Shown here piece by piece: positions 20 to 31,368 of a stretch of DNA of 38,867 bases; position 1 is the first letter of the stretch, and each line of letters begins with the position of its first letter. The stretch is from positions 1 through 38,867 of the forward strand of contig DATDWU010000027.1 in assembly GCA_035289525.1 (NCBI GenBank). The letters are read 5' to 3'. The position numbers were made by a program, and so were the translations under genes. The DNA comes from Patescibacteria group bacterium (GTDB taxonomy: Bacteria; Patescibacteriota; Microgenomatia; Daviesbacterales; UBA10151). The notes under the pieces are model-generated. The model had not been told where the DNA came from. It saw nothing but the letters and a program-made list of their open reading frames with translations, and made no database searches.

Positions 20-95
20 TGGCGCGCCCGGAGGGACTCGAACCCCCAACCGCGACGTCCGAAGCGTCGTGCTCTATCCATTAAGCTACGGGCGC
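20..95 (-). tRNA. tRNA-Arg, anticodon UCG, CCA encoded
   Basis: The reverse complement GCGCCCGTAGCTTAATGGATAGAGCACGACGCTTCGGACGTCGCGGTTGGGGGTTCGAGTCCCTCCGGGCGCGCCA is 76 nt and folds as a cloverleaf. Acceptor is GCGCCCG/CGGGCGC; anticodon arm is CGACG-CTTCGGA-CGTCG (UCG); T arm is GGGGG-TTCGAGT-CCCTC; then G73 and CCA. Confidence 0.9.
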
Positions 96-184
96 AAATT
101 ATATAGTTGCCCTCGCTTGCGAGATTTTCGCCATTATCAAAATCGATGTTTTGATAATGCTTCAATCTTTTAAGCTACGGGCGC
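96..184 (-). repeat. tRNA-Arg-derived pseudo-unit 1 (89 nt), directly upstream of the tRNA
   Basis: 16-nt identity ttaagctacgggcgca at 170-185 versus 81-96, which is the tRNA 5' acceptor/D start. It keeps a D-arm-like GCTT..AAGC, then a perfect 11-bp hairpin at 132-159 (cattatcaaaa/ttttgataatg), followed on the minus strand by GCGAA. The acceptor 3' strand is only partly complementary. Confidence 0.6.
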
Positions 185-274
185 ATTTTTTCAAAATGCT
201 TGTATCTTGCCGTAACTTCGCTACTATTGAAATATTCTTTTCAATAGTACTACGTTACGTAAAGCTACGGGCGC
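185..274 (-). repeat. tRNA-Arg-derived pseudo-unit 2 (90 nt)
   Basis: 16-nt identity aagctacgggcgcaaa at 262-277 versus 83-98. A perfect 11-bp hairpin at 222-248 (tactattgaaa/tttcaatagta) is nested in an outer stem cgtaac/gttacg (211-216/254-259). On the minus strand it is again followed by GCGAA. Confidence 0.6.
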
Positions 275-398
275 AAAAAACATCGAAGATTCTGCCAACC
301 TAAAGTCTCTCCATAGATTAATGGTTACCGAATCATCGAACCCAATCATTGTTTGCTTTTTAAGTTTTAAAAACAATAGCAACAATTCACCTGATATT

Positions 399-731
399 TT
401 AGCAAATTAATAGCTTTTGATTTGGCTCAATTTTAAATTTGCTTATTGTTCCTGTGGGTAGCTCCAAAACATTAAAATATCCGGGATTCCAGAAGAAGAA
501 GCGGTTAGGTTTTAAATTCTTTTTTAATGTTACAACTTTGAAATCCTGATTCAGGACAATAACGTCGACAGGTTCTTTGAGAAAAAACGTATGAATACCA
601 AAGCGGGTTTTAAAAAGCATGTTGCGTGGATTGGTTTTTATGAGTAGTCCGAACATCCGGTCGATAAAAGATCGGGCTATTTTTAAGTCTTTACAAATAA
701 TTTTACCGGTAGTCAGGCTTTTCAGAATCAT
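399..731 (-). CDS. DUF192 family protein
   Basis: DUF192-like core RMFGLL..NMLF..FGIHTFFLKEPVDVIVLN..VLELP. ATG at 731 is preceded by GGAGAAGGA about 8 nt upstream. The ORF-track GTG at 800 is a less likely start. Confidence 0.6.
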   Translation of the reverse strand: MILKSLTTGKIICKDLKIARSFIDRMFGLLIKTNPRNMLFKTRFGIHTFFLKEPVDVIVLNQDFKVVTLKKNLKPNRFFFWNPGYFNVLELPTGTISKFKIEPNQKLLIC

Positions 732-844
732 AAAAAGATCCTTCTCCGCCGGCTGGCGGATCAGGATGACAAATGTTGAAATAACTATAGCATTTGTCAC
801 TTGCGTTTATGGGTTTACGATGATATCATGCCTGAAACTTAACT

Positions 845-1576
845 ATGGCAGGCCCAAAGAAAAAAACTACAGTCAAAAAAACCGAACTTAAGGTAACCGC
901 ACCCCGGAAAACATCAAGAGCTAAGGCAGCCGCAGAGACTGAAGCTTCGTTTTTTGATTCGGCTGACCAAAGTCCCAAAAAGACAATTATCACAAAGAAA
1001 TATTTATATGCGGTGGTAGTTGTTTTAGCAGTAATCGGAGTTTTATTTACTGCCTCAAGGTTTTGGGTGATTGCCTGGGTTGATAATAAGCCGGTAACTA
1101 AATTCGAGCTTTATTCTCTTCTGGAAAGCCGCGATAAAGGAAAAACTTCGGAAGAGTTGATTGTTAATGCCCTGTTGAAGTCGGAAGGAGCAAAACAACG
1201 CCAATCGGTGGAGGAAGCCGAAATCGAGGAGGAAGTAAAAAAGATTGAATCAAACCAGGGTGGGGCGGAACAGCTTGACCAGATTCTTTCAATCAGAGGG
1301 CTGACCCGCGAAGACTTCCGGAAACTGGTTTCTCAGCAGTTATTAATCCAGAAATTGTTTGGTCAAGGTGTGAATATTACCGATGACGATGTTGCTAAAT
1401 TTATTGAATCGGAAAAAGCTTCTTTGGATCCCCAGGCTTTAGCTAACCCGGAAAGCTCGGAAGCAGCCAGGATGCGGGATGGAATAAAAGAACAGCTTAA
1501 GTGGAATAAGGTCAACGAAAACTACAATAACTGGTTAAAAGAGAATTTAAACGGCAGCCGGGTCAGCCGGAACTGA
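845..1576 (+). CDS. Membrane-anchored SurA N-terminal-domain-like chaperone (no PPIase domain seen)
   Basis: Lys-rich N-terminus, one TM helix (YLYAVVVVLAVIGVLF), then a SurA_N-like segment (VDNKPVTKFELYSLLE..QQLLIQKLFG). Confidence 0.45.
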   Translation: MAGPKKKTTVKKTELKVTAPRKTSRAKAAAETEASFFDSADQSPKKTIITKKYLYAVVVVLAVIGVLFTASRFWVIAWVDNKPVTKFELYSLLESRDKGKTSEELIVNALLKSEGAKQRQSVEEAEIEEEVKKIESNQGGAEQLDQILSIRGLTREDFRKLVSQQLLIQKLFGQGVNITDDDVAKFIESEKASLDPQALANPESSEAARMRDGIKEQLKWNKVNENYNNWLKENLNGSRVSRN

Positions 1577-2236
1577 TTTTTCCTTCAACTTTTTTTCAGG
1601 CACAGCAATTCCGGCCAGCAGTCCAAACGAAGTTCCGATCAAAAATCCTCCGGTAACGTCGGTAGTCCAATGCTCCCCCAAATAGATCCTGGAGACCGTC
1701 ATTAAAATTAATATTCCTGCCAGAATCGGCTGGGCAATAGTTTGGAAATATTTGCTTCGCCTGAAAGAGAAAAAACACATTAAAAAAACAATCAAAAAAG
1801 CAGTTCTTGTTTCGTGTCCGGAGGGGTAAGAATATAAATCATGAACAAAATATTTTGGGAATTGGATTTCGAGCACACCTCTGTAAAACATGAACGGAGG
1901 AGCAGGATGATGAACAAAAACCTTACCGAATATCTCAATGGCTAAGGCTAAAGGAAGAAGCAGGAGGGAGACTGCAGTCAGCCAAAATTTTCTAATAGCC
2001 ATTAAAATAAATAGTGTCAACCAAATTACACCGGTTACCTCGGCTGATCCTAAAACCGAAAACCAGGAAAAAAGATAGTCAAGCCGGCGTGGAATTCTAT
2101 CCTGGAATTTAACCGTTAAATCGAAATCAAGTTGGGTAAAAGTTTCCTTAGCCACAAGATACGAAAAGAATATAAACAGTATGAACAGGAAGGCTGCAAT
2201 TACAAACAAGAATTTCTTATTAAATATTTTTTTCAT
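1547..2236 (-). CDS. PAP2 family phosphatase (membrane)
   Basis: PAP2 motifs PSGHETR and SRIYLGEHWTTDVTGG, with multiple TM helices. Confidence 0.8.
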   Translation of the reverse strand: MKKIFNKKFLFVIAAFLFILFIFFSYLVAKETFTQLDFDLTVKFQDRIPRRLDYLFSWFSVLGSAEVTGVIWLTLFILMAIRKFWLTAVSLLLLPLALAIEIFGKVFVHHPAPPFMFYRGVLEIQFPKYFVHDLYSYPSGHETRTAFLIVFLMCFFSFRRSKYFQTIAQPILAGILILMTVSRIYLGEHWTTDVTGGFLIGTSFGLLAGIAVPEKKLKEKSVPADPAAV

Positions 2237-2298
2237 CCTTGATTTAAAACCATTAAACTATGTTACAGGAGAATAAAGGTTTCAGGCAAGTCACCTAC

Positions 2299-3090
2299 TT
2301 AACGGTTGCGCTCGTTGCGGACAAAAAGGTAAGTCCCGACAGAAAGCATGACTGTAAACAAGATGCTGATAACAATCAGGTTAACTAACGGGTGGTACAA
2401 AACGACATATTGGTAATCCGGTTGGCCCCAATAATAAAGTCCTCTGAAAAAATCCACCGCATAAGTCATTGGTGCCAGGCGCGAAAGTACTAAAATCGGC
2501 AAAGGCAACTCTTTAATCGGGTTAAAAACCCCGGCCAGAAAAAACTGGGGGAAAATTACAAAAGGGAAAAGTTGATTGGCGCTTCTCTGATTTCCTAAGG
2601 CAGCCATTACTAAAACCCCAAACGCCCCGCCTAATAAACAGGCGGCAATTATCGCTGGTGTTGCCAAAAGGAGCTGTGCCGTAGTAATAGCAATCGGGAA
2701 AAATAATCCCATGAATAAACCAAAAAAGACAACACCAACAGCCTGTACGAGCGATACTAACGACTCGCCTAATATTTTACCGAATATTATAGAATAACGG
2801 GAAATTGGGGAGACGAACATTTCCTGGGAAAAATCAGATTCCCGGTCCTGGATTAATGAGATGATTCCGGAAGCTGTGGACTGAAATAAGGTTTGAGCTA
2901 AAACTCCGGTAAAGGTAAAAGTTAAATAGTTAAAAGCAATAAATTGGCCAATATTAGATTGCAAGCTGGTTCCTAACGCACCAATAAAAATTATCGGAAA
3001 TATAAAGGAAATTACTAATCGGAAACGGTCCCTAAGCAGTTTGGTAAAGTCTCTTAGGGCAATAGTTAATATGGCGTTAATTTCCTTCAT
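2299..3090 (-). CDS. ABC-2 type transporter permease
   Basis: About six TM helices and an ABC-2 permease-like layout downstream of the ATPase. ATG at 3090 is preceded by GGAGG. The longer ORF-track start at 3144 overlaps the ATPase gene. Confidence 0.75.
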   Translation of the reverse strand: MKEINAILTIALRDFTKLLRDRFRLVISFIFPIIFIGALGTSLQSNIGQFIAFNYLTFTFTGVLAQTLFQSTASGIISLIQDRESDFSQEMFVSPISRYSIIFGKILGESLVSLVQAVGVVFFGLFMGLFFPIAITTAQLLLATPAIIAACLLGGAFGVLVMAALGNQRSANQLFPFVIFPQFFLAGVFNPIKELPLPILVLSRLAPMTYAVDFFRGLYYWGQPDYQYVVLYHPLVNLIVISILFTVMLSVGTYLFVRNERNR

Positions 3091-3097
3091 AATATCG

Positions 3098-4063: not shown

Positions 4064-4075
4064 GCAATTGTTCTA

Positions 4076-4172
4076 GGTGACTAATGTGACTAAGGATACT
4101 AAGGTGACGAAGGAAGCTCAGATTTATGTTATATACTTTGGAAACCTCAGTTGCCTCAGTTGCTTAAGTTAC
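4076..4172. repeat. Inverted arrays of tandem 9-mers (imperfect long palindrome)
   Basis: Left arm 4076-4111 is four tandem 9-mers: ggtgactaa tgtgactaa ggatactaa ggtgacgaa. Right arm 4142-4172 is aaacctcag ttgcctcag ttgcttaag ttac. The units are largely complementary (tgactaagg versus cctcagttg: 6 Watson-Crick plus 2 G-T pairs). Confidence 0.55.
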
Positions 4173-4184
4173 ATTATCTACCTT

Positions 4185-5762
4185 TTATCCTAATTTCTCA
4201 CGCTGGGTGCGTAAGAAAATAAACCACTGCTCGAAAAATCCGAATATAACTTTAAATGGTGTTTCGATAAGAAGATCAAAGAAGAATAAAATGATATTGA
4301 TTTTAGAAATATTCTCAGTCAACCGTCTGCCGGCATGGATGATCGGCAGGAAGAAAAAGTCAAACAGAACCGACTTAAAGCTTTGCTTGTCGGTTTGGAG
4401 GGAATAAACATGGGCGGTCTGATTAATCCGGTAACAGATAAATGAAACAATCAGCAGGAAGAAAATAAAGACGGTTTGGCTGACAATAGTCATATTAAGC
4501 AGCGTCAGGGCGTAAACTATCGAGCCTAGCGTTAATACCAGTGCCGCCAGCCAGAGGACAATGAAAATAAAACTTAAAATTGGGTCGACTTTTTTGCCGG
4601 CCTTACGCAAAACCAAAGGCTGCCAGGCATCCTGGCCGGTTGTATAAATTATTGATTTTATCTTATCCCAAATACGCAAAGAATTATCCCGGTCCGGAGT
4701 TTTTATGAAAAGGGCCGCCACCACCATCAGCAAAGGCGGGAAAACCGTATTTAAAGCAATCGAACTCCAGATAACATGGCCGTAAATCAGGCTTTCAAGG
4801 CTGCCCTCAACCCCCAAACCGAAAACCGCTTTTGTAACGATAATAAAGATGACACCCCGGACAATTGCCCGGCTGACCTTTTCCCTGATATTGTCGTATT
4901 TTTTGGTGCAGGTGTTTATAACCGTTACTTTGAAATCATCGATGTTCCTGATCAGGTCGCCGTTTTTACCGCGGTGCTGTTTTAAAATTTCCTCAAGAAT
5001 ATAGAAAGGAATGGACTGGTTTTTGAAAAAAGTTATCAGCTTATCTTTGAGCGGATAATTGATCTGGTAGTTAATTTGCTTGTAGGCTTCCAGAAAGTTA
5101 ATGGCAATGTGCTCGAGATTATTTTCGGTCAGCTCGCCGAATATCTGGATAAAAAGATGGTAGCGCAAAAGAGGTAAGTCCTGGTTGGCATAAGTCCGGC
5201 GGATCGATAAAAAGACCTGGGCGTCTTTGGTGGTGTTGCTGTCATCGGAGATAACTACTTTGTCTTTAAAAAACTGGAACATGAAATTGGCAATCAGTTC
5301 GCGGTCTTTTGAAGGACTGAGAATATTTTCGATAGCCGAGGACATAAAATTTAAAATCCATTCATTAACTATGCCCCGGTTGACGCGGTGCTTTTGACTG
5401 ACTTTATCCTGGAGATGCAAATACAAGGTGATAATTTTTTCAACCCGGTCTGTGATGCTTTCGGGGACTGTGCCCTCCGGAAAATAGCGGGCCCAAACCA
5501 GTTCCCTGACTAAAGGCTCGGCAATCGTCTGGGCGTTTCCTCCCAGCAAAAATCTCCTGCGCAGGATCCTTTCAATCGCTCCCCGCAAAACTGCATCGTC
5601 ATCCCGGAAATCCATGGCATTGCGTAATTTTTCATACCAGGAAGCCACCTCGGAAACGACCGGATTGACGGAAATCATTTTGTCATAAGAATGGGCTTTT
5701 TCTTTATCGAAATGATTAATTAAATACTCGGAAATAGGCGAGAGCCCCTTGTAACTTTCCAT
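4185..5762 (-). CDS. Hypothetical membrane protein (soluble N-terminal region of about 330 aa plus C-terminal TM bundle)
   Basis: Long intact ORF with several C-terminal hydrophobic helices. No motif recognised. Confidence 0.5.
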   Translation of the reverse strand: MESYKGLSPISEYLINHFDKEKAHSYDKMISVNPVVSEVASWYEKLRNAMDFRDDDAVLRGAIERILRRRFLLGGNAQTIAEPLVRELVWARYFPEGTVPESITDRVEKIITLYLHLQDKVSQKHRVNRGIVNEWILNFMSSAIENILSPSKDRELIANFMFQFFKDKVVISDDSNTTKDAQVFLSIRRTYANQDLPLLRYHLFIQIFGELTENNLEHIAINFLEAYKQINYQINYPLKDKLITFFKNQSIPFYILEEILKQHRGKNGDLIRNIDDFKVTVINTCTKKYDNIREKVSRAIVRGVIFIIVTKAVFGLGVEGSLESLIYGHVIWSSIALNTVFPPLLMVVAALFIKTPDRDNSLRIWDKIKSIIYTTGQDAWQPLVLRKAGKKVDPILSFIFIVLWLAALVLTLGSIVYALTLLNMTIVSQTVFIFFLLIVSFICYRINQTAHVYSLQTDKQSFKSVLFDFFFLPIIHAGRRLTENISKINIILFFFDLLIETPFKVIFGFFEQWFIFLRTQREKLG

Positions 5763-5801
5763 ACCCTAAGAGTACCACAATCTGCTAAAATTTTGTCTGG
5801 T

Positions 5802-6788: not shown

Positions 6789-6789
6789 T

Positions 6790-8292
6790 ATGAAAATTTT
6801 GCTGAAGAATATATTTTCGGACAGGAAATTAATCGTTACTCTGAGCTTAATTTTAATTCTTCATTTGTTTTTAAGACTTTATCATGCCGAGGCAAATTTA
6901 GGCTTTGGCCACGATGAAGATTTGGGCGGGTGGATTGCCAAAGATATTATCGCCGATCATAACTTCAGGCTGATTGGCCAGGAAACCAGCATAGACGGAT
7001 TATTTATCGGACCGCTTTTTTATTATCTTCAGGCCGGCTATTTTGCGCTGTTTAATATGGATCCGATCGGCGGATTGTATTTGACTCTGACCATTTCGGT
7101 TATTACTTTTTTCAGTATTTATTACGTGTTCAGACGTTTTTTTGGGCTGAACACCGCTCTGACAGGAGTCTTTCTCTATGCCGGTTCGCAGGCCCTGGCC
7201 GGTCACGATACCTGGATTGTGCCGACCCAACCGACCCTTCTTTGGACGACCTGGTTTTTGTTTGCCCTTTTCTACATTATTAAAGAAGGAAATCCGAAAA
7301 TCTTTCTTTTGCTCGGGGTCTTGCTCGGATTAATCTGGTATATCCATATCGCTTTTGTGCCGCTAATTCTACTGATATTTTTAGCCTTTTTTGTTTCAAA
7401 AAAACGCCCGGTTCTTAAGAAAATAATATTCAACAGGCAAACATTTTTTGGAATTATTATCTTTTTATTTCTGATGCTGCCTTTCTTTGCATTTGAGATC
7501 CGTCATAATTTTACCCAAACTCAAAGTTTGATTAAGTCATTGTCCGAAGACAGGCATCAGGAAAACGGCCGGATTTTTAAAGTTTATGACGGGGTATCCT
7601 GGTCGTTTATGAATATCATTTATGAAATTAGAAACACCAATCCCGATTGGATTAGGATCTATCAGGCGGTGATGCTGTTTATTTTCACCGGAATGTTAAT
7701 GGCTAACGCCAAATACCTGGGCCGGTATGGGGTAGTTATATATGGTTGGTTGGGTCTTGTTATCATCAGTCAGTTAATTTCCAAAAGGGCAATCAGCGAA
7801 TACTATTTTACCAACCTGAGTGTTCTAGAAATATTAACAATAGCCGTATTTTTAACCGGTCTGACTAAAAAAAACTATTTAAAAATTTTTGTTTTAATTT
7901 TGCTGGCAATTTTCGCAATTTTGAATCTGGATAGCGTAATTAAAAGACTTCCCAACGGCGAAGGATATTTGATGAGGAAAAAACTGGTGGCTTTTATAGC
8001 TAAAGATGCAAAAAAGAACAATTACCCCTGCATATCCATAAACTATATGACTTCGCCCGGTAAAAACGCCGGTTTCAGATATTTTTTCTGGTTGAACGGC
8101 CTTAATGTGATAAGCACAGGTAACGATGTAGCGGTTTACAGCATCTTAAACCCGGCGGTTATGTCGGAGAAAGAAATAGCAGATAGGGAGGGAGTATTAG
8201 GAGTGATTTTGCCTGATAAACCAAGGGTTGATGAAGCAGCCTGTAAAAAACCGGAACGCCGGTTATTGCCGCCCTGGAGGTTTAATAATTAA
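6790..8292 (+). CDS. GT-C fold glycosyltransferase (family 39 / ArnT-PMT-like), polytopic membrane protein
   Basis: More than 10 TM helices and an early acidic loop motif GHDEDLGGW, typical of GT-C enzymes. Starts 1 nt after the upstream stop codon. Confidence 0.45.
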   Translation: MKILLKNIFSDRKLIVTLSLILILHLFLRLYHAEANLGFGHDEDLGGWIAKDIIADHNFRLIGQETSIDGLFIGPLFYYLQAGYFALFNMDPIGGLYLTLTISVITFFSIYYVFRRFFGLNTALTGVFLYAGSQALAGHDTWIVPTQPTLLWTTWFLFALFYIIKEGNPKIFLLLGVLLGLIWYIHIAFVPLILLIFLAFFVSKKRPVLKKIIFNRQTFFGIIIFLFLMLPFFAFEIRHNFTQTQSLIKSLSEDRHQENGRIFKVYDGVSWSFMNIIYEIRNTNPDWIRIYQAVMLFIFTGMLMANAKYLGRYGVVIYGWLGLVIISQLISKRAISEYYFTNLSVLEILTIAVFLTGLTKKNYLKIFVLILLAIFAILNLDSVIKRLPNGEGYLMRKKLVAFIAKDAKKNNYPCISINYMTSPGKNAGFRYFFWLNGLNVISTGNDVAVYSILNPAVMSEKEIADREGVLGVILPDKPRVDEAACKKPERRLLPPWRFNN

Positions 8293-8999
8293 TTGCCAAG
8301 CGTAAAGTATTTCAGGGAGCTTTTTCTGCCGTCTGAAGTTGATATCTGAAAGCCGTATTCCTGATTAGGCAAAGCAGGCAATCCAAACCTTACTCTTGAG
8401 CTCGACCAGTATCGGATTTGTCCGTTTCCGGCCAAATTATTGTCCGCATAAATATCAATAGATCCTCTCTTGCTCCCAAATTCCTTTCCTTCAAAAACTA
8501 TCTCATATTCGCCGTTTAAAAGCCTGACTGACGTTGAATTAATGACAGGTTGCCCATTTTTAACAGTAAATTTAATTTCATTGCTTTTTTTGTTCTCTGA
8601 AGTGATAACCTGGATTCTGTACGACCCTTTCTTTACTGCCGGAACCTTGGCTTTAATCCCGGTTGGAGACCACGAGACTATCGGCGCGCCGCCTGAGGAA
8701 TAACTTTGGTTGTAGTAACGGAAACTGACCGAGCCGGCGGTACTGCCGAAATTTAAACCGGTTAAAGTAAACTCCTGCATGAAATTGGCTGAAGACGGGT
8801 CCACATCATCAATTTCTACGGCTGTGGTGACGGAAGGTGCGGGTGTGACTGAGGGGCTTGGCGATGGAGTATGGCTTGGCGCAGGGGTTGAGGAGGCAGC
8901 CGGGGTGCTAGTCGGGAAAGGAAAAGGTTTTATTGACGGAAAAGGGAAAGGGTTGAAAAAAGAAATTGCAATCGGTACTGCCAGTAAGCTTGTTAACAT
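8289..8999 (-). CDS. Secreted protein with P/S/T-rich linker and two IPT/TIG-like domains
   Basis: Signal-like N-terminus, the linker PTSTPAASSTPAPSHTPSPSPSVTPAPS, then repeats of the pattern ..TLTGLNFGSTAGSVSF.. / ..FEGKEFGSKRGSIDIY.. Confidence 0.5.
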   Translation of the reverse strand: MLTSLLAVPIAISFFNPFPFPSIKPFPFPTSTPAASSTPAPSHTPSPSPSVTPAPSVTTAVEIDDVDPSSANFMQEFTLTGLNFGSTAGSVSFRYYNQSYSSGGAPIVSWSPTGIKAKVPAVKKGSYRIQVITSENKKSNEIKFTVKNGQPVINSTSVRLLNGEYEIVFEGKEFGSKRGSIDIYADNNLAGNGQIRYWSSSRVRFGLPALPNQEYGFQISTSDGRKSSLKYFTLGN

Positions 9000-9084
9000 A
9001 ACAACAGGCAGTAAGAGGTAGATTTAACCACAGGCTAAATATAAATGCAATTGCATCAAACCGGATCAATATAATTTCCGGTGA

Positions 9085-9118
9085 TTAGCTTCCCACCTCT
9101 CAGGTGTCAACGTAAAGT
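9085..9118. repeat. 34-nt dispersed repeat, degenerate copy (partner inside dinB at 25086-25119)
   Basis: ttagcttcccacctctcaggtgtcaacgtaaagt matches 25086-25119 at 30/34 positions, and the first 22 nt are identical. Confidence 0.7.
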
Positions 9119-9162
9119 AGGCGGATATGCGTTCAGGTAATATTGCTGTATAATCCCTTGTT

Positions 9163-18363: not shown

Positions 18364-18897
18364 TTATCGCCTATAAATGCTTATAGAGTGCGGTTTTACA
18401 GGACTTGGAATCATGACCTCAGGAAGTGAAAAAGTTTTACCCTGGTTTTTTAGATAATCTTCAAGTGTAATGGCAGTCTTCCAATAGAGATTCGCTCTTT
18501 TATAGAATTCGGCAGGACTCACTTTTTCAAACAAAGCAATCATTGCCATATTTAACTCCATTGAAGGGGCAACAAGAACGGCTCTTGGATCAACCATTAC
18601 TTGTAAAATGGAGTCGTTTGAAGAAATAGGCATATCTGGTGTAGGTTCCGCATATACAGAATGCATCCGGCGAAAACCTATTCCTTCCTTTCTAGCGACT
18701 AGATCAAATAACTCATCGGTAATTCTTATTTGCAATGAGTACATTCTATATCTAAGTGTTGGAATGTGCCTGGATCTGTGTCTTGACTTTAAGCCTGAAT
18801 GTAAAATTTCAGGAACAAATTCATCTAAAGTTACATGATAAACCGGAGCTTGGTTTAAGATTTCTTGTGATCTGGACATTACAAAAGCATTATACAT
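18364..18897 (-). CDS. Hypothetical protein; possible ADP-ribosyltransferase-fold (H-Y-E-like) orphan
   Basis: VYHVTLDEFVPEILHSGL resembles the first strand-helix of DarT/Tpt1-type ARTs. HSVYAEP and LPEVMIP are candidate Y and E motifs. Tentative, by eye only. Confidence 0.4.
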   Translation of the reverse strand: MYNAFVMSRSQEILNQAPVYHVTLDEFVPEILHSGLKSRHRSRHIPTLRYRMYSLQIRITDELFDLVARKEGIGFRRMHSVYAEPTPDMPISSNDSILQVMVDPRAVLVAPSMELNMAMIALFEKVSPAEFYKRANLYWKTAITLEDYLKNQGKTFSLPEVMIPSPVKPHSISIYRR

Positions 18898-18940: not shown

Positions 18941-19492
18941 TTATGCTTTTGGCTCGAGGAGGACCCAATTTTTGGATACAGCGGGTTCGCTGCAGAGGTT
19001 GCGGTTAAAGCAGCAGGGGCGGCGCATTCCTTTATTGAGTTTATCGAGTGCAACTTCGATATGCTTTTTTCTTGTCTCCTCAGTTTTAACAGCGCGGATC
19101 CAGCGAATCCAGTCCCAGCGGGCCATTGGAGTGATATCTTTCCATAAAGCTTCAGCTTTAGGCGAAAAAGACAGTGCTTTTTTTAAATCAGCCGGCACTT
19201 CCGGCTCTATCCACTCTTTAGTCGGTTCAAGAGAAACTTCTACTGTGTCTCCGGAAGCGGCAGAAGCCTCATCAAGCAGCTTTTTATCAGGGGCAAACCA
19301 ATGGCTTGGTTTAAGTCCTGGTCCGTATCTACCATCCGGTTCAAGCAAAGTCTTAAAAGGCACGCCATTGATACTACCTTTAACCATTATCATGCCTCTG
19401 GATGGAAGTTTTGCCGAGGCATCTTCTGGTAGTTGAAGAATTGTCCAATCGCCAATTTTATAAAGTTTAGCTTCAAAAGAGATTGCCGGCAT
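18941..19492 (-). CDS. DUF1905 + YdeI/OmpD-associated family protein
   Basis: N-terminal FEAKLYKIGDWTILQLPED..GMIMVKGSINGVPFKTLLEPDG (DUF1905). C-terminal DWIRWIRAVKTEETRKKHIEVALDKL (YdeI-like). Confidence 0.7.
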   Translation of the reverse strand: MPAISFEAKLYKIGDWTILQLPEDASAKLPSRGMIMVKGSINGVPFKTLLEPDGRYGPGLKPSHWFAPDKKLLDEASAASGDTVEVSLEPTKEWIEPEVPADLKKALSFSPKAEALWKDITPMARWDWIRWIRAVKTEETRKKHIEVALDKLNKGMRRPCCFNRNLCSEPAVSKNWVLLEPKA

Positions 19493-19509: not shown

Positions 19510-19531
19510 AAGGCCCGAACTTGGTTTTGGA

Positions 19532-19577
19532 GTGACTGACGGGATAACACGCCCTTTTGCTTAAGCAAAAGGTGAAC
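19532..19577 (-). repeat. Copy A1: tRNA-His 3'-terminal 14 nt fused to a 32-nt hairpin segment
   Basis: gtgactgacgggataacacgcccttttgcttaagcaaaaggtgaac is 46/46 identical to 19657-19702. The first 14 nt equal the tRNA-His 3' end (19844-19857). It contains the 8-bp hairpin ccttttgc-ttaa-gcaaaagg. Confidence 0.8.
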
Positions 19578-19597
19578 CGGGATCGAAGATCCGCTTA

Positions 19598-19655
19598 AAA
19601 TCCCTTGCCAACCAACCCATAAAAAATCCTCCACAAGGGAGGAATTTTTTCTGGG
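19598..19655 (-). terminator. Copy B1 of the tRNA-His downstream flank, containing a bidirectional intrinsic-terminator hairpin
   Basis: aaatcccttgccaacca..aaaaaa-tcctcc-acaag-ggagga-atttttt. Hairpin at 19627-19643, flanked by A6 and T6. About 80% identical to 19786-19842. Confidence 0.6.
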
Positions 19656-19656
19656 G

Positions 19657-19702
19657 GTGACTGACGGGATAACACGCCCTTTTGCTTAAGCAAAAGGTGA
19701 AC
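19657..19702 (-). repeat. Copy A2: tRNA-His 3'-terminal block fused to the same 32-nt hairpin segment
   Basis: Identical to A1. With the preceding bases it shares 16 nt (gggtgactgacgggat) with the genuine tRNA 3' end. Confidence 0.8.
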
Positions 19703-19785
19703 TCTCTTCCTCTAACTACTACTTAATTTCTGAGGTTGTATTGAGGCATCAACGATCCATAGTTTTAACATTAAATCGCAGTTAT

Positions 19786-19842
19786 AAATCCCTTGCTAAC
19801 CACCACAAAAAAAGCCCTCCTAAAGGAGGACTTTTCTTTGTG
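19786..19842 (-). terminator. Copy B2: intrinsic terminator immediately downstream of tRNA-His
   Basis: Minus strand reads GTCCTCC-TTTA-GGAGGGC followed by TTTTTTT (plus strand 19806-19832). The flank is homologous to B1. Confidence 0.65.
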
Positions 19843-19915
19843 GGTGACTGACGGGATTTGAACCCGCAACCGTCGGTACCACAAACCGATGCTCTACCAT
19901 TGAGCTACAGCCACC
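19843..19915 (-). tRNA. tRNA-His, anticodon GUG, with encoded G-1 and no encoded CCA
   Basis: Minus strand reads G-GTGGCTG-TA-GCTC-AATGGTA-GAGC-A-TCGGT-TTGTGGT-ACCGA-CGGTT-GCGGG-TTCAAAT-CCCGT-CAGTCAC-C. The extra 5' G opposite C73 is the tRNA-His hallmark. Followed by CAC, not CCA. Confidence 0.9.
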
Positions 19916-20070: not shown

Positions 20071-20697
20071 ATGTTCGAACGTTTAAGAACTTTAAGAATC
20101 ATAGGAAGAGTCAGATTTACCAAACCCACACCGGCTGCAGGCGAATTTCAACCCTCTAAAGTAACGGAAGTTTATTTAGCTGCCGGTTATACTACTGATT
20201 TCTCTGAACCAGGTGGCATACCTAACCCTAACAAAACTCATCTAAAACAAAATCGGGGAGAAGCTTTGCTGGTTTTCTCCTGTAGCAACCGGATAGATGA
20301 AATAATTAAAGCTGCCAAAGGTTTTGCCCGAACAAGAAGTTTAACAACACGAGAACCTTCGGTAGTTGTTGTCCTTGGGGTTAATAGAGGTAATTTTTCC
20401 AGTTTCAATGGTGGGCTCAGAATGTATGATGCGCTAAATGCTTCCAATGGAAACGGGTGGAAAGCTGTGACAGACTTTAGTCAATTAGAACAGCCTTGCA
20501 GAGTAGCAATTGGCGCTAAAGAGTTAAGAAATAATATTGCACTTCTGGCTGCTGCCGGATGCGAAGTCAGGATAGCAGATCCTGTTAGTATTCCTGCGAC
20601 GTTGGCGGAATGCTTAGACGATAATAGTGGAATCAAACCGGCGCCTGCTTACCCCGATTTCGAAATTTGGTCACCTCCCCAACAAGACCCCCATTAA
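20071..20697 (+). CDS. Hypothetical protein (orphan)
   Basis: Intact 208-aa ORF behind a consensus promoter. No family recognised. Confidence 0.45.
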   Translation: MFERLRTLRIIGRVRFTKPTPAAGEFQPSKVTEVYLAAGYTTDFSEPGGIPNPNKTHLKQNRGEALLVFSCSNRIDEIIKAAKGFARTRSLTTREPSVVVVLGVNRGNFSSFNGGLRMYDALNASNGNGWKAVTDFSQLEQPCRVAIGAKELRNNIALLAAAGCEVRIADPVSIPATLAECLDDNSGIKPAPAYPDFEIWSPPQQDPH

Positions 20698-22499: not shown

Positions 22500-22769
22500 C
22501 TAGCGGTAAGTATGCTTATCCTTTTTCTTTAAATTAACAGGTATTATTCCGTTATCGTTAATGACATAAAAAAGTCGATGCGAATCACCGACCCAAACCC
22601 TTCTTTGCTCTTGTTCTTTAGCAGCAATCCTTTTTCCTTCAAAGGGGTTGATCTTTAATTTTTCAAATGTATGTCGAAGCTTTTTCTCGATAGATCGGTC
22701 TTTTTTATATAATTTCTTAGCAATTTCTAAGAAAGTTGGGGTGATTACTATTTTAAATCCTAAGTCCAC
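22500..22769 (-). CDS. Type II toxin, RelE/ParE superfamily
   Basis: Pattern ITPTF..AKKL..IEKKL...EKLKINPFEGKRI...RRVWVGDSHRLFYVI..N.IIPVNL..KDKHTY matches the RelE/ParE consensus (..RvGdYRliY.i...i.i..i..R...Y). Confidence 0.65.
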   Translation of the reverse strand: MDLGFKIVITPTFLEIAKKLYKKDRSIEKKLRHTFEKLKINPFEGKRIAAKEQEQRRVWVGDSHRLFYVINDNGIIPVNLKKKDKHTYR

Positions 22770-23733: not shown

Positions 23734-23735
23734 GA

Positions 23736-24080
23736 CTAGAAAATACTGGCTACAGGGGAGATCATTAAAGCTCGGGTTAAGGCTTGTTGATCCGAAACTG
23801 GAGCAGGGCGAGGTGCAGGCAGCGAAAACTCAATAAATTTAGATGGAGGTCTTCTGAATAAAGGTTGGGCTTTCTCTCTCATAATTTTTAACACAAGTTG
23901 CGGAATAAAAGTGGTTATGCTGGCTCCATAGCTAAGTTCTTCGGCGACCTCGAGAGTTCTTGCCGCCACTGTTGCTAACCGTTCCGGTGACTGATCGGCA
24001 AGGCGGGGAGCAAATATAACTGAGAGTGTGTTCAACGCTGGCTTGGACTCCAGAAGATTGGCGAGAGGGATCGGTATCAA
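23736..24080 (-). CDS. Hypothetical protein (doubtful; TTG start, GC-richer than its surroundings)
   Basis: The only ORF in this interval, divergent from dinB, with no recognisable motif. Confidence 0.25.
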   Translation of the reverse strand: MIPIPLANLLESKPALNTLSVIFAPRLADQSPERLATVAARTLEVAEELSYGASITTFIPQLVLKIMREKAQPLFRRPPSKFIEFSLPAPRPAPVSDQQALTRALMISPVASIF

Positions 24081-24125
24081 CCATTAACAGTAAAAACATA
24101 TCAAGTAGCGGATATTTTGTCTAGT

Positions 24126-25460
24126 ATGAAAATAATAATTCACATTGATTTTAATTCTTTTTTCGCAACTGTCGAGCAGCAGGCTAATCCGCGCTTGCGG
24201 GGAAAACCTATCGGGGTGACGGGTGGAGATAGGCTGACCCGGACGGTTATAGGTGCGGCGTCGGTTGAGGCAAAATTGCGCGGGGTTAAAACCGGAATGA
24301 GGATCCCCGAGGCTTTAAAATTGTGCCCGGATCTGACTTTGGTCAAAGGCGATTCGGATAAATACGTTGAGATTAATAAAAAATTTTTAAATATTTTAAA
24401 AGGCTATACCGATAAGATGGAGGTATTTTCGATAGATGAAGTATTTTTGGAAATCTCGAAGTCTGAAATACGAAATACGAAGTACGAAATAGATTGTAAT
24501 GTTTTGAATTCAAACTTCGAACTTTATACTTCAAACTTCCTTTTTAATCTCGCTCTAGACATTAAAGAGCAGATTAAAAAGCAGGCAGGTGAGTGGATTA
24601 CCGTTTCAATCGGCATTTCTTATAACAAAATGATGGCTAAATTGGCAGGTTCCTTATATAAACCTGACGGATTGGTCGGAATTTTTGATGAGCAGTCGGC
24701 AATGTGGATTTTAGACCGCGTGAAGCTTGATGATGTCTGCGGTATTGGATTTAGGATCAAAAAAAGATTGAACGATATGGGTGTATTCAATTTCTCTGAT
24801 TTACGCAAAGTACCGCTGCCTTTATTGCTGACGTCTTTTAAAAGTTATGGCCGGATTTTATATAATTTTGCCAGAGGTATTGACGAGCGTGAAATTGTGC
24901 CTTTTTTTGAAAAAGAAGAAGTGAAATCCATCGGTCACAGGCATACTATTAACAGGGACGTTTCAGATCCTGAGGAATTGAAACAGATTCTTTTAAAACT
25001 TTGTGAACTTGTTGCGCGCCGGGCGCGGGCTAAAAAACTGGAAGGAAAAACTGTCAGCTTTTGGTTCAGATATGCTTTCTTAAGTTTAGCTTCCCACCTC
25101 TCAGGTGGAAGCGTAAATTTGGGGGGTTTTGGGTTTTCCGGTTCCGGAATGCAAACTACAATTCCTTACACCAGCGATGGTTTGGATATTTTTAATGCCT
25201 CCTGGAACTGTTTTCTGAAACTTTGGGACGGTAGTCCGGTACGGATGGTTGGTGTTTCCCTCTCCAATTTAAAATCCGCCACCCCGCAAAACTTAACTTT
25301 TCTTGAAGATATAAACAGAAGGGAAGTTATCACCCGCGCTTTGGATAAAATTAATGACAGGTATGGTGAATTTACGTTGCAAAGAGGCATATTGCTCAAC
25401 TCAAGAAATATCCGAAGAATGGCCAATTCTTTTATGTCGGACAGGCGGTTTAAGATTTGA
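24126..25460 (+). CDS. dinB: DNA polymerase IV (Y-family), carrying two in-frame repeat insertions
   Basis: HIDFNSFFATVEQ, SIDEVFLE, SIGISYNKMMAKLAGSLYKPDG, and a helix-hairpin-helix VCGIGFRIKKRL. ATG at 24126. Confidence 0.85.
   Translation: MKIIIHIDFNSFFATVEQQANPRLRGKPIGVTGGDRLTRTVIGAASVEAKLRGVKTGMRIPEALKLCPDLTLVKGDSDKYVEINKKFLNILKGYTDKMEVFSIDEVFLEISKSEIRNTKYEIDCNVLNSNFELYTSNFLFNLALDIKEQIKKQAGEWITVSIGISYNKMMAKLAGSLYKPDGLVGIFDEQSAMWILDRVKLDDVCGIGFRIKKRLNDMGVFNFSDLRKVPLPLLLTSFKSYGRILYNFARGIDEREIVPFFEKEEVKSIGHRHTINRDVSDPEELKQILLKLCELVARRARAKKLEGKTVSFWFRYAFLSLASHLSGGSVNLGGFGFSGSGMQTTIPYTSDGLDIFNASWNCFLKLWDGSPVRMVGVSLSNLKSATPQNLTFLEDINRREVITRALDKINDRYGEFTLQRGILLNSRNIRRMANSFMSDRRFKI
24457..24540. 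repeat. Imperfect palindrome of tandem 7-mers inside dinB
   Basis: The left arm gaagtctgaaatacgaaatacgaagtacgaa pairs with the right arm ttcaaacttcgaactttatacttcaaacttc (23 Watson-Crick plus 1 G-T of 31). Encodes KSEIRNTKYEIDCNVLNSNFELYTSNF. Confidence 0.7.
25086..25119. repeat. 34-nt dispersed hairpin repeat inside dinB (partner at 9085-9118)
   Basis: ttagcttcccacctctcaggtggaagcgtaaatt. Forms gcttcc(c)acc-tctca-ggtggaagc, a 9-bp stem with one bulge. Encodes ..LSLASHLSGGSVN.. Confidence 0.7.
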
Positions 25461-25485
25461 AGATATTTAGTGTAAACTTAAATTA

Positions 25486-28682: not shown

Positions 28683-28730
28683 TTATGTCCTATAGTTGAA
28701 TTTTACAACTTTGAGGGTAGAATGTAAAGA

Positions 28731-28845
28731 GTATTAAGTAGTAAGCATCAAGTATTAAGCAAAGATTTGCATGGGTCATTTATTAGTGGCTTAAATTCTC
28801 AACCTAAATCTTGATAATTCCCGCTTAATACCTAATACTTAATAC
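28731..28845. repeat. Inverted arrays of tattaag-type 7-mers flanking the pyk / SDR divergent intergenic region
   Basis: Left arm gtattaagtagtaagcatcaagtattaagc (28731-28760). Right arm gcttaatacctaatacttaatac (28823-28845). The terminal 10-mer and 9-mer are exactly complementary. Confidence 0.55.
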
Positions 28846-28846
28846 A

Positions 28847-29794
28847 ATGAAAATCTTGGTAACCGGCGGTGCAGGCTTTTTAGGATCAAATTTGTGCGGC
28901 AGACTTTTAAAAGAGGGACATGAAGTTTTTTGCCTGGACAATTTGGTTACCGGTAAAAAAAATAACATCGAAGAATTTTTAACAAATCCGTTGTTTAAGT
29001 TTGAAAATCTGGATGTAACTGACGTTGGCGAGTTAAAGGATATTGATTTTGACCGGGTTTATCATCTGGCATCCCCTGCCTCGCCCAATAAGCATAGTTC
29101 AAAGAGCTATTTGAGCCTGCCTTTTGAGACTATGAAGGTCAATTCTTTAGGAACCTGGGTCCTTGCCCAATTTGCAGCGGATCATAAAGCCAGATTTTTA
29201 TTTGCCTCAACTTCGGAAATTTACGGCGATCCTTTAGAGCACCCCCAAAAAGAAGATTACCGGGGCAATACTTCAACCACCGGAATCCGCAGCGTTTATG
29301 ATGAGGCAAAAAGGTTCGGTGAAACGGTTGTTTCCGCTTTTGTCCGCTACAAAAATCTGGACGGGCGGATAATCCGGATTTTTAACACTTACGGCCCGAA
29401 GATGGATTTGGAAGACGGCCGGGCAGTTATAGAATTTGTCACCCGCGCCTTAAAAAATGAAGAAATCCCGGTTTTCGGTGACGGGAGCCAAACCCGCTCA
29501 TTTTGCTATGTTGACGATTTAATTGACGGGATAATTAAGGTTATGGAGTCGGAGGGAACTTCAGGTGAGGTTTTTAATCTGGGCAATCCGGATGAATTCA
29601 CTATTTTAGAACTGGCAGAAATAGTAAAGAAGGTCACCGGTTCGACTTCGGAAATAAAACTGGCCGAGGAGCTGCCTGAGGATGATCCGAAAAGAAGGAA
29701 GCCTGATATAGACAAAGCCAGAAGAGTTTTGGGTTGGGAACCGAAAGTAAAACTTGAAGAAGGACTTGCTAAGCTTACAGACTACCTAAAGTAA
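28847..29794 (+). CDS. UDP-glucuronate decarboxylase (UDP-xylose synthase)-like NAD-dependent SDR
   Basis: [32 protein letters not shown], and RIFNTYGP are typical of UXS/ArnA-C-terminal-type decarboxylases. Confidence 0.8.
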
Positions 29795-29927
29795 AGCCCG
29801 CACAGACTTCGTTTTTATTCTCGAACCAGAAGTTGGCATAATTTGTCATCCGGGACACTTGAGCAATATGAGGTTTTGAGGAAATCAGAAAGCTTTTAAA
29901 ATTATATTTACGAGTCTTTATGGCAAT

Positions 29928-30974
29928 TTATACTTTATTTTTCTGAAACTGATCTGCGAGGGGTTTTGTATCCCCCCTAAATATATATTGATCTATTGCC
30001 TCCTGATATGCTCTTCTTGATCGTTCATCTCTTTTGATACCTCTCCAATTTACTAGAGGTAAACCTTTATGAGCTAAATAGGTATCAACTAACGTTCGGG
30101 TCATTGTATGGTTGTAATCTGGGTGGGGATGTATTGCTAAATAAGTTCCAGTAATCCATGTAGGAGATTCGGAACGATCGGCAACTCGTGATCCTAATAC
30201 CATATCATTGTACCAAGTTAAATACATATCTACAGTATCTCTAAATTCCCTGACAGAATTACTGCCAAAATAAAAGCCCAGTCTAAAGTTTTGACTAATT
30301 TCGGCAATTCCTCGATCAATCCTTGACTGTTTATCTCTGTATAAAGTTATCCCTTCTGAGGTTGGTCTTACCAATTTAACAGTATCTCTGTACGCTTGCT
30401 CTAAATCTGCTAAATTCACCCGACCTAGACTCGTAAATGCTGTAACATTTTGCGCCCTAGCTTTTTCTTTTGCATCTCCTTCCCGTTGTGTCCCATTTAC
30501 TACTACAACCTGTGATATAGCGGCTAACCAATCCTCGGGGTCCTTAAAATCTTCTGCAAATGCTAGTCTTGGACTATACTCATCTATAGTTAAATCAATT
30601 CCTTTTGGAGCTATCCTGTCTTCACCGGCAGGTCTATGATAATTTCTTACAGCATCATGAGCTAATTTAGCAAATCCGACAACTTCCCTTTGATTCATTG
30701 CTGTATCTGTTGAGAGAGATAAAACGAGATTTGTTAAGGTGGGTTCAAATTCCTCCCAAGCATGAGTTTTAGCAAGTTTATTAAGAGCTCCAAACCTACC
30801 TGCTTCTCTAACTTCAGTTGGAAGGGATGGATATAAACCAATAACCGACTCTCTTAGACCTAAAGCAGAACCTAAACCAGCAATATTCGCTTCCGCCCAC
30901 TTAAGTACTGGATGAGTAGAGTGTCCCACATAAAACGCGGGGACACCTTCTCTTTCATTTCGTTGTAAAGTCAT
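29928..30974 (-). CDS. Fic-fold-like protein with a degenerate active-site motif
   Basis: Residues 282-293, HPHPDYNHTMTR (nt 30096-30131), align with the Fic motif HPFxDGNGRxxR. The downstream TLVDTYLAHKGLPLVNW...DERSRRAYQEAI parallels the Fic post-motif helix and the ..G.P.i....r..Y..al.. pattern. Confidence 0.5.
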   Translation of the reverse strand: MTLQRNEREGVPAFYVGHSTHPVLKWAEANIAGLGSALGLRESVIGLYPSLPTEVREAGRFGALNKLAKTHAWEEFEPTLTNLVLSLSTDTAMNQREVVGFAKLAHDAVRNYHRPAGEDRIAPKGIDLTIDEYSPRLAFAEDFKDPEDWLAAISQVVVVNGTQREGDAKEKARAQNVTAFTSLGRVNLADLEQAYRDTVKLVRPTSEGITLYRDKQSRIDRGIAEISQNFRLGFYFGSNSVREFRDTVDMYLTWYNDMVLGSRVADRSESPTWITGTYLAIHPHPDYNHTMTRTLVDTYLAHKGLPLVNWRGIKRDERSRRAYQEAIDQYIFRGDTKPLADQFQKNKV

Positions 30975-30980
30975 CGGCGA

Positions 30981-31009
30981 AGTATATAGGAAAAGAAAAA
31001 ATTTATCAA
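30981..31009 (-). promoter_or_regulatory. Sigma70-like promoter (TTGATA-17-TATACT), 6 nt from the ATG at 30974
   Basis: Minus strand reads TTGATAaattttttcttttcctaTATACTtcgccgATG. Confidence 0.5.
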
Positions 31010-31024
31010 ACTATAAGACTAAAA

Positions 31025-31088
31025 GCACGCCCGGAGGGATTAAGATCGCTTCGCTAACCTTCCCTCGCTCCGCGAGGTCGAACTAGCT
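31025..31088 (-). repeat. tRNA-sized remodelled partial copy of tRNA-Arg(UCU) that retains the exact 3'-terminal 17 nt
   Basis: gcacgcccggagggatt at 31025-31041 is identical to 31225-31241, at an offset of exactly 200 bp. The upstream part (minus strand) contains the hairpin CCTCGC-GGA-GCGAGG and an AGCT.GTTCGA D-like stretch. Confidence 0.6.
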
Positions 31089-31184
31089 TTCTAATTAAAA
31101 ATCCCTGCTGACTCTGATTAAATTAAATTATGTTACTTTTGAAGACTTCTGGGTTAAATCGCTGTTGGAATTCTCTTGGGAGTT

Positions 31185-31224
31185 AGATTTAAAATTTCAG
31201 AATGAATCCCGAAATTTTAAATCT
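31185..31224. other. Perfect 14-bp AT-rich inverted repeat abutting the tRNA-Arg(UCU) 3' end
   Basis: agatttaaaatttc (31185-31198) and gaaattttaaatct (31211-31224) with a 12-nt loop. It begins 1 nt after the discriminator position. Confidence 0.6.
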
Positions 31225-31225
31225 G

Positions 31226-31298
31226 CACGCCCGGAGGGATTCGAACCCCCGACCTAAACGTTAGAACCGTCTTGCTCTATCCACTGAGCTACGGGCGC
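31226..31298 (-). tRNA. tRNA-Arg, anticodon UCU, no encoded CCA
   Basis: Minus strand reads GCGCCCG-TA-GCTC-AGTGGATA-GAGC-A-AGACG-GTTCTAA-CGTTT-AGGTC-GGGGG-TTCGAAT-CCCTC-CGGGCGT-G. There is a G1-U72 wobble and an unusual G32. Followed by CAG. Confidence 0.8.
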
Positions 31299-31368
31299 TT
31301 TCATTCATGCGCTGGAGCGAAGTGGAGAGGCGAGTCATTGAAGTCTCATCCACATAAGCTACGTGCGC
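31299..31368 (-). pseudogene. Decayed 70-nt tRNA-Arg-like copy directly upstream of tRNA-Arg(UCU)
   Basis: On the minus strand, GCGCACGTAGCTTATGTGGATGAGAC matches the tRNA 5' 26 nt at about 21 positions. The 3' part TCGCTCCAGCGCA resembles TCCCTCCGGGCGT. No foldable cloverleaf. Confidence 0.5.

Follow-up and report, generated by a model that had tools for sequence, protein, structure and literature searches.

We analysed a stretch of 38,867 nucleotides (nt), the whole of which is referred to as the window, from an uncultured groundwater bacterium of the Patescibacteria (contig DATDWU010000027.1). Identical or near-identical contigs are present in several aquifer metagenome assemblies. The window contains exactly three tRNA genes, all intact, all on the minus strand and all called by both ARAGORN and Rfam: tRNA-Arg-TCG (20–95), tRNA-His-GTG (19842–19914) and tRNA-Arg-TCT (31225–31298). 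Each of these genes has its own 5′ or 3′ end repeated exactly, over 13–17 nt, at a distance of 70–200 nt. These terminal copies, and the small gene-less units that they terminate, are the subject of what follows.

Upstream of tRNA-Arg-TCG, positions 1–15 of the tRNA recur as an exact 15-nt block at 170–184, and the block is found a second time at 262–274 (13 nt exact; 14 of 15 over 260–274), the spacings being 89 and 90 nt. Downstream of tRNA-His there are two copies of the 3′ end, one with 16 exact nt (19655–19670) and one with 14 (19532–19545), at spacings of 187 and 125 nt. Downstream of tRNA-Arg-TCT, an exact 17-nt copy of the 3′ end lies at a spacing of 200 nt (31025–31041). The 5′ end of the same gene has an imperfect copy at a spacing of ∼70 nt, with 12 of 15 positions matching at 31354–31368 and similarity reaching 31343 (i.e. 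a degenerate copy of positions 1–26 at 31343–31368). All of the copies are on the same strand as their parent tRNA, here the minus strand. Every 3′ block runs from tRNA position 58, which is in the T loop, to the gene end, and the 5′ blocks stop in the D loop. A hairpin adjoins each copy, on the copy's inner side.

A model's reading of the window without database searches (the sequence-only reading) had claimed that all three tRNA loci carry partial copies of themselves, each an exact block with a hairpin beside it, that their recurrence exceeds chance and that the process responsible is linked to tRNA gene ends. Each of these claims held. When the 600-nt flanks were shuffled 1000 times, the longest match to the tRNA was at most 13 nt, compared with the 15, 16 and 17 nt observed. 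As a background control we used a small sample of nine tRNAs at unrelated loci, where the only matches of 11 nt or more were not terminal blocks. For the suggestion that the repeat system may be genome-wide, four tRNA loci of the window species were examined; the fourth, tRNA-Lys-CTT, is 0.85 kb from tRNA-Arg-TCG and has no terminal copies. The 3′ side of tRNA-Arg-TCG is truncated by the window edge. The same locus in L013–L015 (L numbers denote the contigs and genomes compared with the window) has two 5′ and two 3′ copies at one tRNA.

Anatomy of the units

The 3′ copies terminate homologous gene-less units of 125–200 nt that lie behind tRNA-His, tRNA-Arg-TCT and tRNA-Arg-TCG. Read in the tRNA sense, a terminator is followed by a CTGCGATTTAA motif, RAAGCNAGTTCR and a hairpin, after which a 7-nt linker leads to the tRNA 3′ block. 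The unit starts at the first base past the tRNA end, with an A-rich stretch and the intrinsic terminator. AACWGCGATTTAA begins ∼58–61 nt into the unit, with the GCGATTTA core at +62–65, and is separated from RAAGCNAGTTCR by an AT-rich stretch that is often TATAAT-like; in several units a TATAAT-like box is found 7–10 nt ahead of GGAAGC. RAAGCNAGTTCR contains a T-loop-like GTTCR at +139 to +141 after the core. The hairpin is present in all ten distinct modules, always 1–2 nt past GTTCR, and leads through a linker of ∼7 nt (consensus GYGTRTT) to the tRNA block of 16–17 nt, which runs from the T loop to the discriminator. In short units (125–128 nt) the central part is missing.

The first unit of tRNA-His (E1; 19655–19841, minus strand, 187 nt) is of the long type and ends in the 16-nt copy. 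Its terminator is at 19814–19831, GCAAGGGATTT at 19786–19796, CTGCGATTTAA at 19771–19781 and GTTCA with the hairpin at 19678–19702. The second (E2; 19530–19654, minus strand, 125 nt) is of the short type and contains the 14-nt copy, with its terminator at 19627–19644 and GTTCA with the hairpin at 19553–19577. From GTTCA to the copy, the right-hand modules of E1 and E2 are 100% identical over ∼48 nt, compared with 71% for the remainder. The tRNA-Arg-TCT unit (31025–31224, minus strand, 200 nt) ends in the 17-nt copy and comprises an AT-rich hairpin (31185–31224), CAACAGCGATTTAACC (31152–31167), GGGATTTTTAATTAG (31091–31105), AGCTAGTTCGA (31078–31088), a further hairpin (31063–31077) and a second hairpin/linker (31042–31062).

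A profile hidden Markov model made from the long units was run over 2.9 Mb of fetched sequence and matched nowhere but at these tRNA flanks. Exact-pattern scans with the unit motifs gave only chance matches or one related genome (L033) among the GTDB representatives, and no match in viral contigs. There are no open reading frames (ORFs) inside the 70–200-nt units. ARAGORN found no tRNA in the units and a consensus promoter scan found no match within them. Rfam, run in permissive mode on the units, the 5′ units and the upstream element described below, returned no family, with only the true tRNAs above threshold. Terminal inverted repeats were sought by comparing the first 45 nt with the reverse complement of the last 45 nt, and the similarity was no better than for shuffles.

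Folding of the sequence-based alignment recovered only the terminator hairpin, the stem of which covaries. The pre-core hairpin was compared module by module. Its sequence is wholly different among unit types, yet at least three comparisons show compensatory changes that preserve its pairing. The Arg hairpin reads CCTCGC/GCGAGG in one case and CCTTGC/GCAAGG in another, and the His hairpin ...TTGC/GCAA... or ...TTCC/GGAA..., where both strands also differ by a 1-bp extension. Inward of the hairpin there are ∼10–13 nt of weakly tRNA-like sequence, GGNNGNNNGTTCR in the 3′ units and AGAGCATCG in the 5′ unit of L199, so that each fragment resembles a tRNA end interrupted in the T or D loop by a hairpin.

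Two other origins for the fragments were considered and rejected. Decayed duplicates of whole tRNA genes do not fit, as only the ∼10–13 nt of weakly tRNA-like sequence extend beyond the terminal block. Permuted or split tRNA genes and pieces resembling transfer-messenger RNA would require complementary halves in the right order, and neither these nor any ARAGORN or Rfam signal were found.

The 5′ units are a smaller mirror image of the 3′ units, with tRNA positions 1 to 13–18 followed by hairpins. In 5′ unit 1 of tRNA-Arg-TCG (96–184, minus strand), a TATAAT stands immediately ahead of the tRNA, spacer hairpins lie at 112–123 and 132–159, and the outward end is the exact 15-nt copy. In 5′ unit 2 (185–274, minus strand), a long hairpin (211–259) adjoins the copy of positions 1–15 at 260–274. 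The 5′ leader of tRNA-Arg-TCT (31299–31387, minus strand) contains the degenerate copy of positions 1–26 and an extended −10-like TGATATAAT within 31374–31387; this promoter-like box recurs in L033 and L200.

A conserved upstream element, TTGGGTTCGATGATTCGG ... GGCAGAATCTTCGATG (281–345, minus strand), adjoins the outermost Arg-TCG 5′ copy. The element is ∼65–75 nt long (ATGNTTGGGTTCGATGATTCGG ... GGCAGAATCTTCGATG) and has imperfect inverted arms with TTCGAT and no Rfam match. It occurs in L013 at 5710–5775 and at 6807–6872, one of the two being immediately upstream of tRNA-Lys, and a shortened form abuts tRNA-Arg-TCT in L033, at about 8780–8800.

Distribution, exchange and larger insertions

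Contigs of relatives were fetched from species with a pyruvate kinase 73–78% identical to that of the window species. The unit family was found in these related Patescibacteria, patchily. L033 has one unit at tRNA-His and one at tRNA-Arg-TCT. L199 has both a long 3′ unit and a 5′ unit at tRNA-His, the latter with an 18-nt copy 159 nt upstream, and a unit with a decayed copy at tRNA-Arg-TCT. L198 has a short unit with a decayed copy at tRNA-His, and its tRNA-Arg-TCT lies outside the fetched stretch. L200, with ∼92% DNA identity to L033, has no unit at tRNA-His and a 0.56-kb element between tRNA-Arg-TCT and its unit. In L206, tRNA-His retains only a decayed remnant of a unit terminator, and tRNA-Arg-TCT is followed by a 1.27-kb element, a degenerate copy and then a unit. 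Units are absent from both genes in L197 and from tRNA-His in L201, whose tRNA-Arg-TCT is outside the fetched stretch. More distant genomes (54–56% identity) have no units, and when metagenomes were scanned once with pyruvate kinase the relatives obtained were all distant, at 56% identity or less. Within the window species, the strain L006 is missing exactly the 125-nt unit E2. The DNA flanking the arrays is lineage-variable.

Three observations on these relatives stand apart from the units. In the tRNA-His gene of L206 (14938–15014), which is followed by the decayed terminator remnant, the T loop is atypical: it reads GCGGGAGCGTTACCCGT and lacks TTCRA. In L207 (11430–12190), a gene for a 216-aa Y1_Tnp (HUH) protein lies beside pyruvate kinase, with CACTCCCGGAGTG palindromes on both flanks; the arrangement is like that of repetitive extragenic palindromes (REP) and their associated transposases (RAYT), and the palindromes bear no relation to the hairpins of the units. 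Among GTDB representatives, the closest genomes (L033, L034, L035 and L036) are labelled 'uncultured Gammaproteobacteria bacterium'. These labels look wrong, given the gene content and the Patescibacteria/Microgenomates names on homologues of a cargo gene from the large inserted element beside tRNA-Arg-TCG, described below.

Judged from their sequences, the units are mosaics that have been exchanged between tRNA loci, with nucleotide-precise junctions. This is most clearly seen in the L199 Arg-TCT unit, the first 145 nt of which are 90% identical to the Arg-TCG E2 of the window species and the last 54 nt of which are 87% identical to the window Arg-TCT unit, with the break at GTTCG. The left end, AAAACAAAAAGT, abuts the core to the nucleotide in four contexts: the window-species Arg-TCG E2, L199 Arg-TCT, L033 Arg-TCT and, after a degenerate core, L200.

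The copies themselves are identical to the resident tRNA end in 6 of 11 cases. The L033 copies bear the substitutions that separate its tRNAs from those of the window. The L198 His copy and the L206 distal Arg copy have a different allele, that of another species' tRNA, the L199 Arg copy has four mismatches, and the copies around the L200 element are unequal. The foreign-allele and decayed copies argue against continuous regeneration from the resident gene and against selection for identity. They fit displaced or imported attachment-site (att) fragments of different ages.

Larger insertions are found at the same junctions. Positions 1–19 of the window (minus strand) are the terminal part of a large insertion directly adjoining the Arg-TCG 3′ end. 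L011 has the same sequence, extended, and there the element reaches at least 9.6 kb, with genes for a serine recombinase of the large type, a coupling protein (VirD4/TraG-like) and a relaxase-like Replic_Relax protein, as well as metal-resistance genes that include a heavy-metal ATPase. The element has no sequence in common with the units, and its serine recombinase is the only recombinase seen at such a tRNA junction. In L013–L015 the DNA is different from the first base past tRNA-Arg-TCG and consists of two ∼190-nt units, each ending in a tRNA 3′ copy. The 0.56-kb element of L200 (7903–8466) and the 1.27-kb element of L206 (3990–5219) both lie between tRNA-Arg-TCT and an older unit. The former is bounded by the unequal copies and has a 105-aa ORF with no family match; the latter has its own strong promoter and encodes a Fic-domain protein fused to an excisionase-family helix-turn-helix. 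Both of these small cargo elements are without a recombinase.

The reading frame of the serine recombinase (L011 10706–12441; window 1–95) runs antisense through tRNA-Arg-TCG and has its stop inside the tRNA, the C-terminus reading ...LARPEGLEPPTATSEASCSIH. As the frame crosses the junction, its last ∼25 residues are encoded across it and would differ in an excised form.

Probable miniature integrative elements and the alternatives

The common anatomy and family relationship, the precise junctions, the patchy distribution, a copy-number polymorphism and the larger cargo elements at these sites are all shown by the sequences. The feature is genuine and not random; it represents a form, specific to this lineage, of the hot spot for integration that tRNA genes are known to be. 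We favour, with moderate confidence, the reading that the units are miniature integrative elements, non-autonomous and arranged in tandem, with att-type fragments of the tRNA as their boundaries, or relics of such elements. The reading stems from their size, about that of one attP site, and their lack of genes. Elements that insert into tRNA genes and regenerate them leave a displaced end fragment behind, and the loci agree with this signature in configuration, in the T-loop start of the 3′ blocks, in their arrays and in the variability of the genes around them.

In such a scheme the partial tRNA copies would be att-type end fragments bounding small insertions that are stacked at both gene ends. 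Site-specific recombination would strike the tRNA gene in its T loop or D loop, with an incoming element bringing a replacement tRNA end and displacing the older copy outward. Later recombination among the repeats would alter the copy number and shuffle modules. The units would either rely on a recombinase encoded elsewhere or be immobilised relics, and the mirrored 5′ units may come from a rarer class carrying the 5′ part of the tRNA. The recombinase, the crossover position and present-day mobility are inferred.

The sequence-only reading had offered three candidate processes, among which tRNA-targeting mini integrative elements fare best, given one family at three tRNAs, nucleotide-precise junctions, varying presence and cargo insertions at the same junctions. 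Template switching during replication or repair fails to account for one family at three loci with mosaic exchange. Selection for tRNA-mimicking RNAs is not supported, the units scoring neither as a tRNA nor as an Rfam family and some of the copies being decayed or of a foreign allele.

The favoured reading can be compared with known systems. As defined for the Islander tool, a tRNA-gene (tDNA) island shows an intact tRNA gene and, oriented like it, a displaced fragment of one of its ends, a 3′ fragment lying downstream or a 5′ fragment upstream, and the fragments start in the anticodon loop, the T loop or the T/acceptor junction (PMC4383910). The units are alike in all of these respects, including the T-loop start of the 3′ fragments, except that the D-loop end of the 5′ blocks falls outside the listed sublocations. 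Island arrays arise by repeated use of one site, as those described here may have done. Islander accepts islands of 2–200 kb and requires an integrase gene, and it takes attP as about 250 bp (PMC4383910), which is similar to a unit plus core. The units, by contrast, are 70–200 bp, gene-less and devoid of an integrase; they occupy both ends of one and the same tRNA, and a hairpin and linker separate GTTCR from the fragment. Serine recombinases are described in the same source as not known to target tRNA genes (PMC4383910).

The tycheposons of Prochlorococcus (bioRxiv 10.1101/2020.12.28.424599) are also islands beside tRNA genes in a streamlined genome. Neighbouring tycheposons are separated only by a partial tRNA copy, scattered partial tRNAs derive from older events, and a minority use large serine recombinases, a further likeness (bioRxiv 10.1101/2020.12.28.424599). 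They are kilobases in size, with an integrase and cargo, whereas here a ∼190-nt gene-less unit family occurs at several tRNAs in several species.

Cis-mobilisable elements (CIMEs) are att-flanked, gene-poor derivatives of integrative conjugative elements (ICEs). The units resemble them in having att-type repeats, in lacking recombination and transfer genes and in standing in tandem with larger elements at the same site. Known CIMEs are, however, kilobases long and clearly derived from a resident ICE, and the units are unrelated in sequence to the serine-recombinase element. CIMEs have been reviewed together with integrative mobilisable elements (PMC5704250).

Several points weigh against miniature integrative elements. 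There is no recombinase inside the window or any unit, and none of the loci fetched from the lineage showed a tyrosine integrase. The serine-recombinase element is known from one end, and the putative att repeat at its far end was not recovered; a protein search in that direction gave only a 99% variant on short contigs. The hairpin and linker (23–36 nt) part GTTCR from the core, where a classical core site would be continuous, and the preservation of hairpin pairing by compensatory changes is a constraint that a simple relic model does not predict. A circle of 125–200 bp would be very small for excision and reintegration, and no free attP form was found in viral contigs. Finally, 5′ fragments are rare among known islands (159/3919; PMC4383910).

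The units might instead have arisen by local tandem duplication, i.e. slippage or unequal crossing-over of the tRNA end and its flank, followed by divergence and gene conversion, with no dedicated enzyme. The L006 strain, which differs by exactly one 125-nt unit, agrees with this, as do the right-hand modules of the two His units, the identity of which (against 71% elsewhere) indicates homogenisation or recent duplication. Such a process is unlikely to be the origin of the units, however. The same family, with the same internal spacing, is present at three tRNAs, each with its own tRNA end, and modules have been swapped between the Arg-TCG and Arg-TCT loci across species. The junctions are nucleotide-precise in four contexts, unrelated cargo elements occupy the same junction, and duplication would not create a hairpin between GTTCR and the copy.

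Transposition that duplicates a long target site would involve staggered cuts at the tRNA boundary and 13–18 nt inside it, in the T or D loop, with gap repair duplicating the end. It would explain the 5′ and 3′ copies symmetrically and is consistent with the majority of copies being identical to the adjacent tRNA end, even where species differ. A parallel is provided by casposons, which insert at the 3′ end of tRNA-Leu, generate 14-nt duplications and share one repeat between tandem copies (PMC4779613). The units likewise are inserted at the tRNA 3′ end with direct repeats of ∼14 nt, and neighbouring units share single copies. They differ in being 100 times smaller, in having no terminal inverted repeats, Cas1 or polymerase, and in having repeats that are not always the same as the target. 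Among the Pfam domains listed for the fetched loci, Cas1 and transposases are missing, save the REP-type Y1 gene of L207 with its unrelated palindromes. The L206 and L198 copies differ in allele from the resident tRNA, and the copies around the L200 0.56-kb element are unequal. We regard target-site duplication as improbable.

A selected functional module, to which we attach a similarly low probability, could be either a terminator-plus-promoter cassette or a small RNA acting as a tRNA-end mimic or as a guide to tRNA gene DNA. The small RNA would be composed of the promoter-like TATAAT, GGAAGCAAGUUCG, the hairpin, the linker and the 16–17-nt tRNA-end block. The hairpin in all ten distinct modules with its compensatory changes, the covariation of the terminator stem, the conserved motifs and spacing and the TATAAT-like boxes before GGAAGC would all be expected for a functional module. 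In the real tRNA the block is preceded by TTCGA or TTCAA, which might be likened to a motif beside a guide-matched target. Against this, the units are dispensable, since they are absent from close relatives (L197, L201 and L200 at tRNA-His) and from one strain. The tRNA-end block has decayed (L198 and L199) or become mismatched (L206) with the rest of the unit retained. Nor is there an Rfam family, a tRNA-like fold, a match to the consensus promoter in the units or a gene for an RNA-guided effector in any of the loci.

An enzyme directed by the hairpin to single-stranded DNA (an HUH relaxase, Rep or Y1 transposase) could nick at the linker/copy boundary, at a fixed distance 3′ of the hairpin, and join the product to the loop of the T or D arm. 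The geometry of the hairpin, the ∼7 nt of GYGTRTT and the boundary resembles the nick sites of HUH enzymes. The element adjoining tRNA-Arg-TCG has genes for both a Replic_Relax protein and a coupling protein, and a Y1 transposase is present in the lineage. Mini-elements of the REP/RAYT and IS200/IS605 types are scattered between genes, show no link to tRNA ends and make no direct repeats. The units share with them a short motif directly 5′ of a variable hairpin, small size and an absence of coding sequence, but are bound to tRNA ends and have direct repeats. Known IS200/IS605 insertions produce no direct repeats. The unit hairpins differ completely among unit types, with no single recognition sequence evident, and the palindromes flanking the L207 Y1 gene are unrelated to them in sequence. 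We consider this mechanism very unlikely.

It is just as hard to credit that the units are structurally constrained, tRNA-end-specific miniature mobile elements with a mechanism of their own, in which GTTCR, hairpin, linker and block would form a guide or recognition signal for a trans-acting enzyme and home the element to the T or D loop of a tRNA, where TTCGA or TTCAA precedes the matched block. Miniature relatives of tRNA-targeting mobile elements are most likely, and a novel tRNA-copying system is not favoured over them.

What is new is the structurally conserved family of miniature gene-less units, their presence at both ends of tRNA genes, the linkage of a serine-recombinase element to a tRNA end and the occurrence of all this in Patescibacteria. 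These bacteria have very small genomes with few recognised mobile elements, and here their tRNA gene ends behave like heavily used insertion sites, on either side of the gene. Most often the occupants are gene-less units far below the size limits of island tools (2 kb for Islander), so that the arrays are overlooked; they can also confuse tRNA and island annotation. The units offer a natural catalogue of probably recombinogenic minimal sites of ∼190 bp each. Together with the candidate tRNA-linked serine recombinase, such sites could aid genetic tools for a group that has almost none, and the structure-conserving hairpins beside every copy are a concrete experimental handle.

Neighbouring genes and other features of the window

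The genes flanking the tRNA loci had been described in the sequence-only reading as orphans with strong promoters of their own. The four genes in question (18364–18897, 20071–20697, 29928–30974 and 31445–31810) indeed have no Pfam, PHROG or NCBIfam match; a perfect consensus promoter (TTGACA-17-TATAAT) is found only at the gene starting at 20071. This last gene (plus strand, 208 aa) lies upstream of tRNA-His and has no relative among the GTDB representative genomes. The 348-aa gene at 29928–30974 (minus strand) is situated just past the distal Arg-TCT copy and the 121-aa gene at 31445–31810 (plus strand) beyond the Arg-TCT 5′ copy; like the 20071 gene, both are lineage-variable. The neighbour of the His array was found to be a DUF1905/OmdA gene (18941–19492), rather than the gene at 18364–18897. 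No recombinase or transposase domains were found in the window ORFs.

A 56-nt repeat is present at 9069–9124 and 25070–25125, the two copies being 77% identical with 22 nt exact (TTAGCTTCCCACCTCTCAGGTG). One lies between a TATAAT box and a gene for a Vut_1/YhhQ-type transporter, the other inside the 3′ part of a dinB-like polymerase gene. The repeat has hairpin potential and no Rfam match at the gathering threshold. Toxin–antitoxin-type genes occur at 22500–22769 and 35309–35554, encoding a ParE-like toxin, which has a small upstream partner, and a HicB-like antitoxin.

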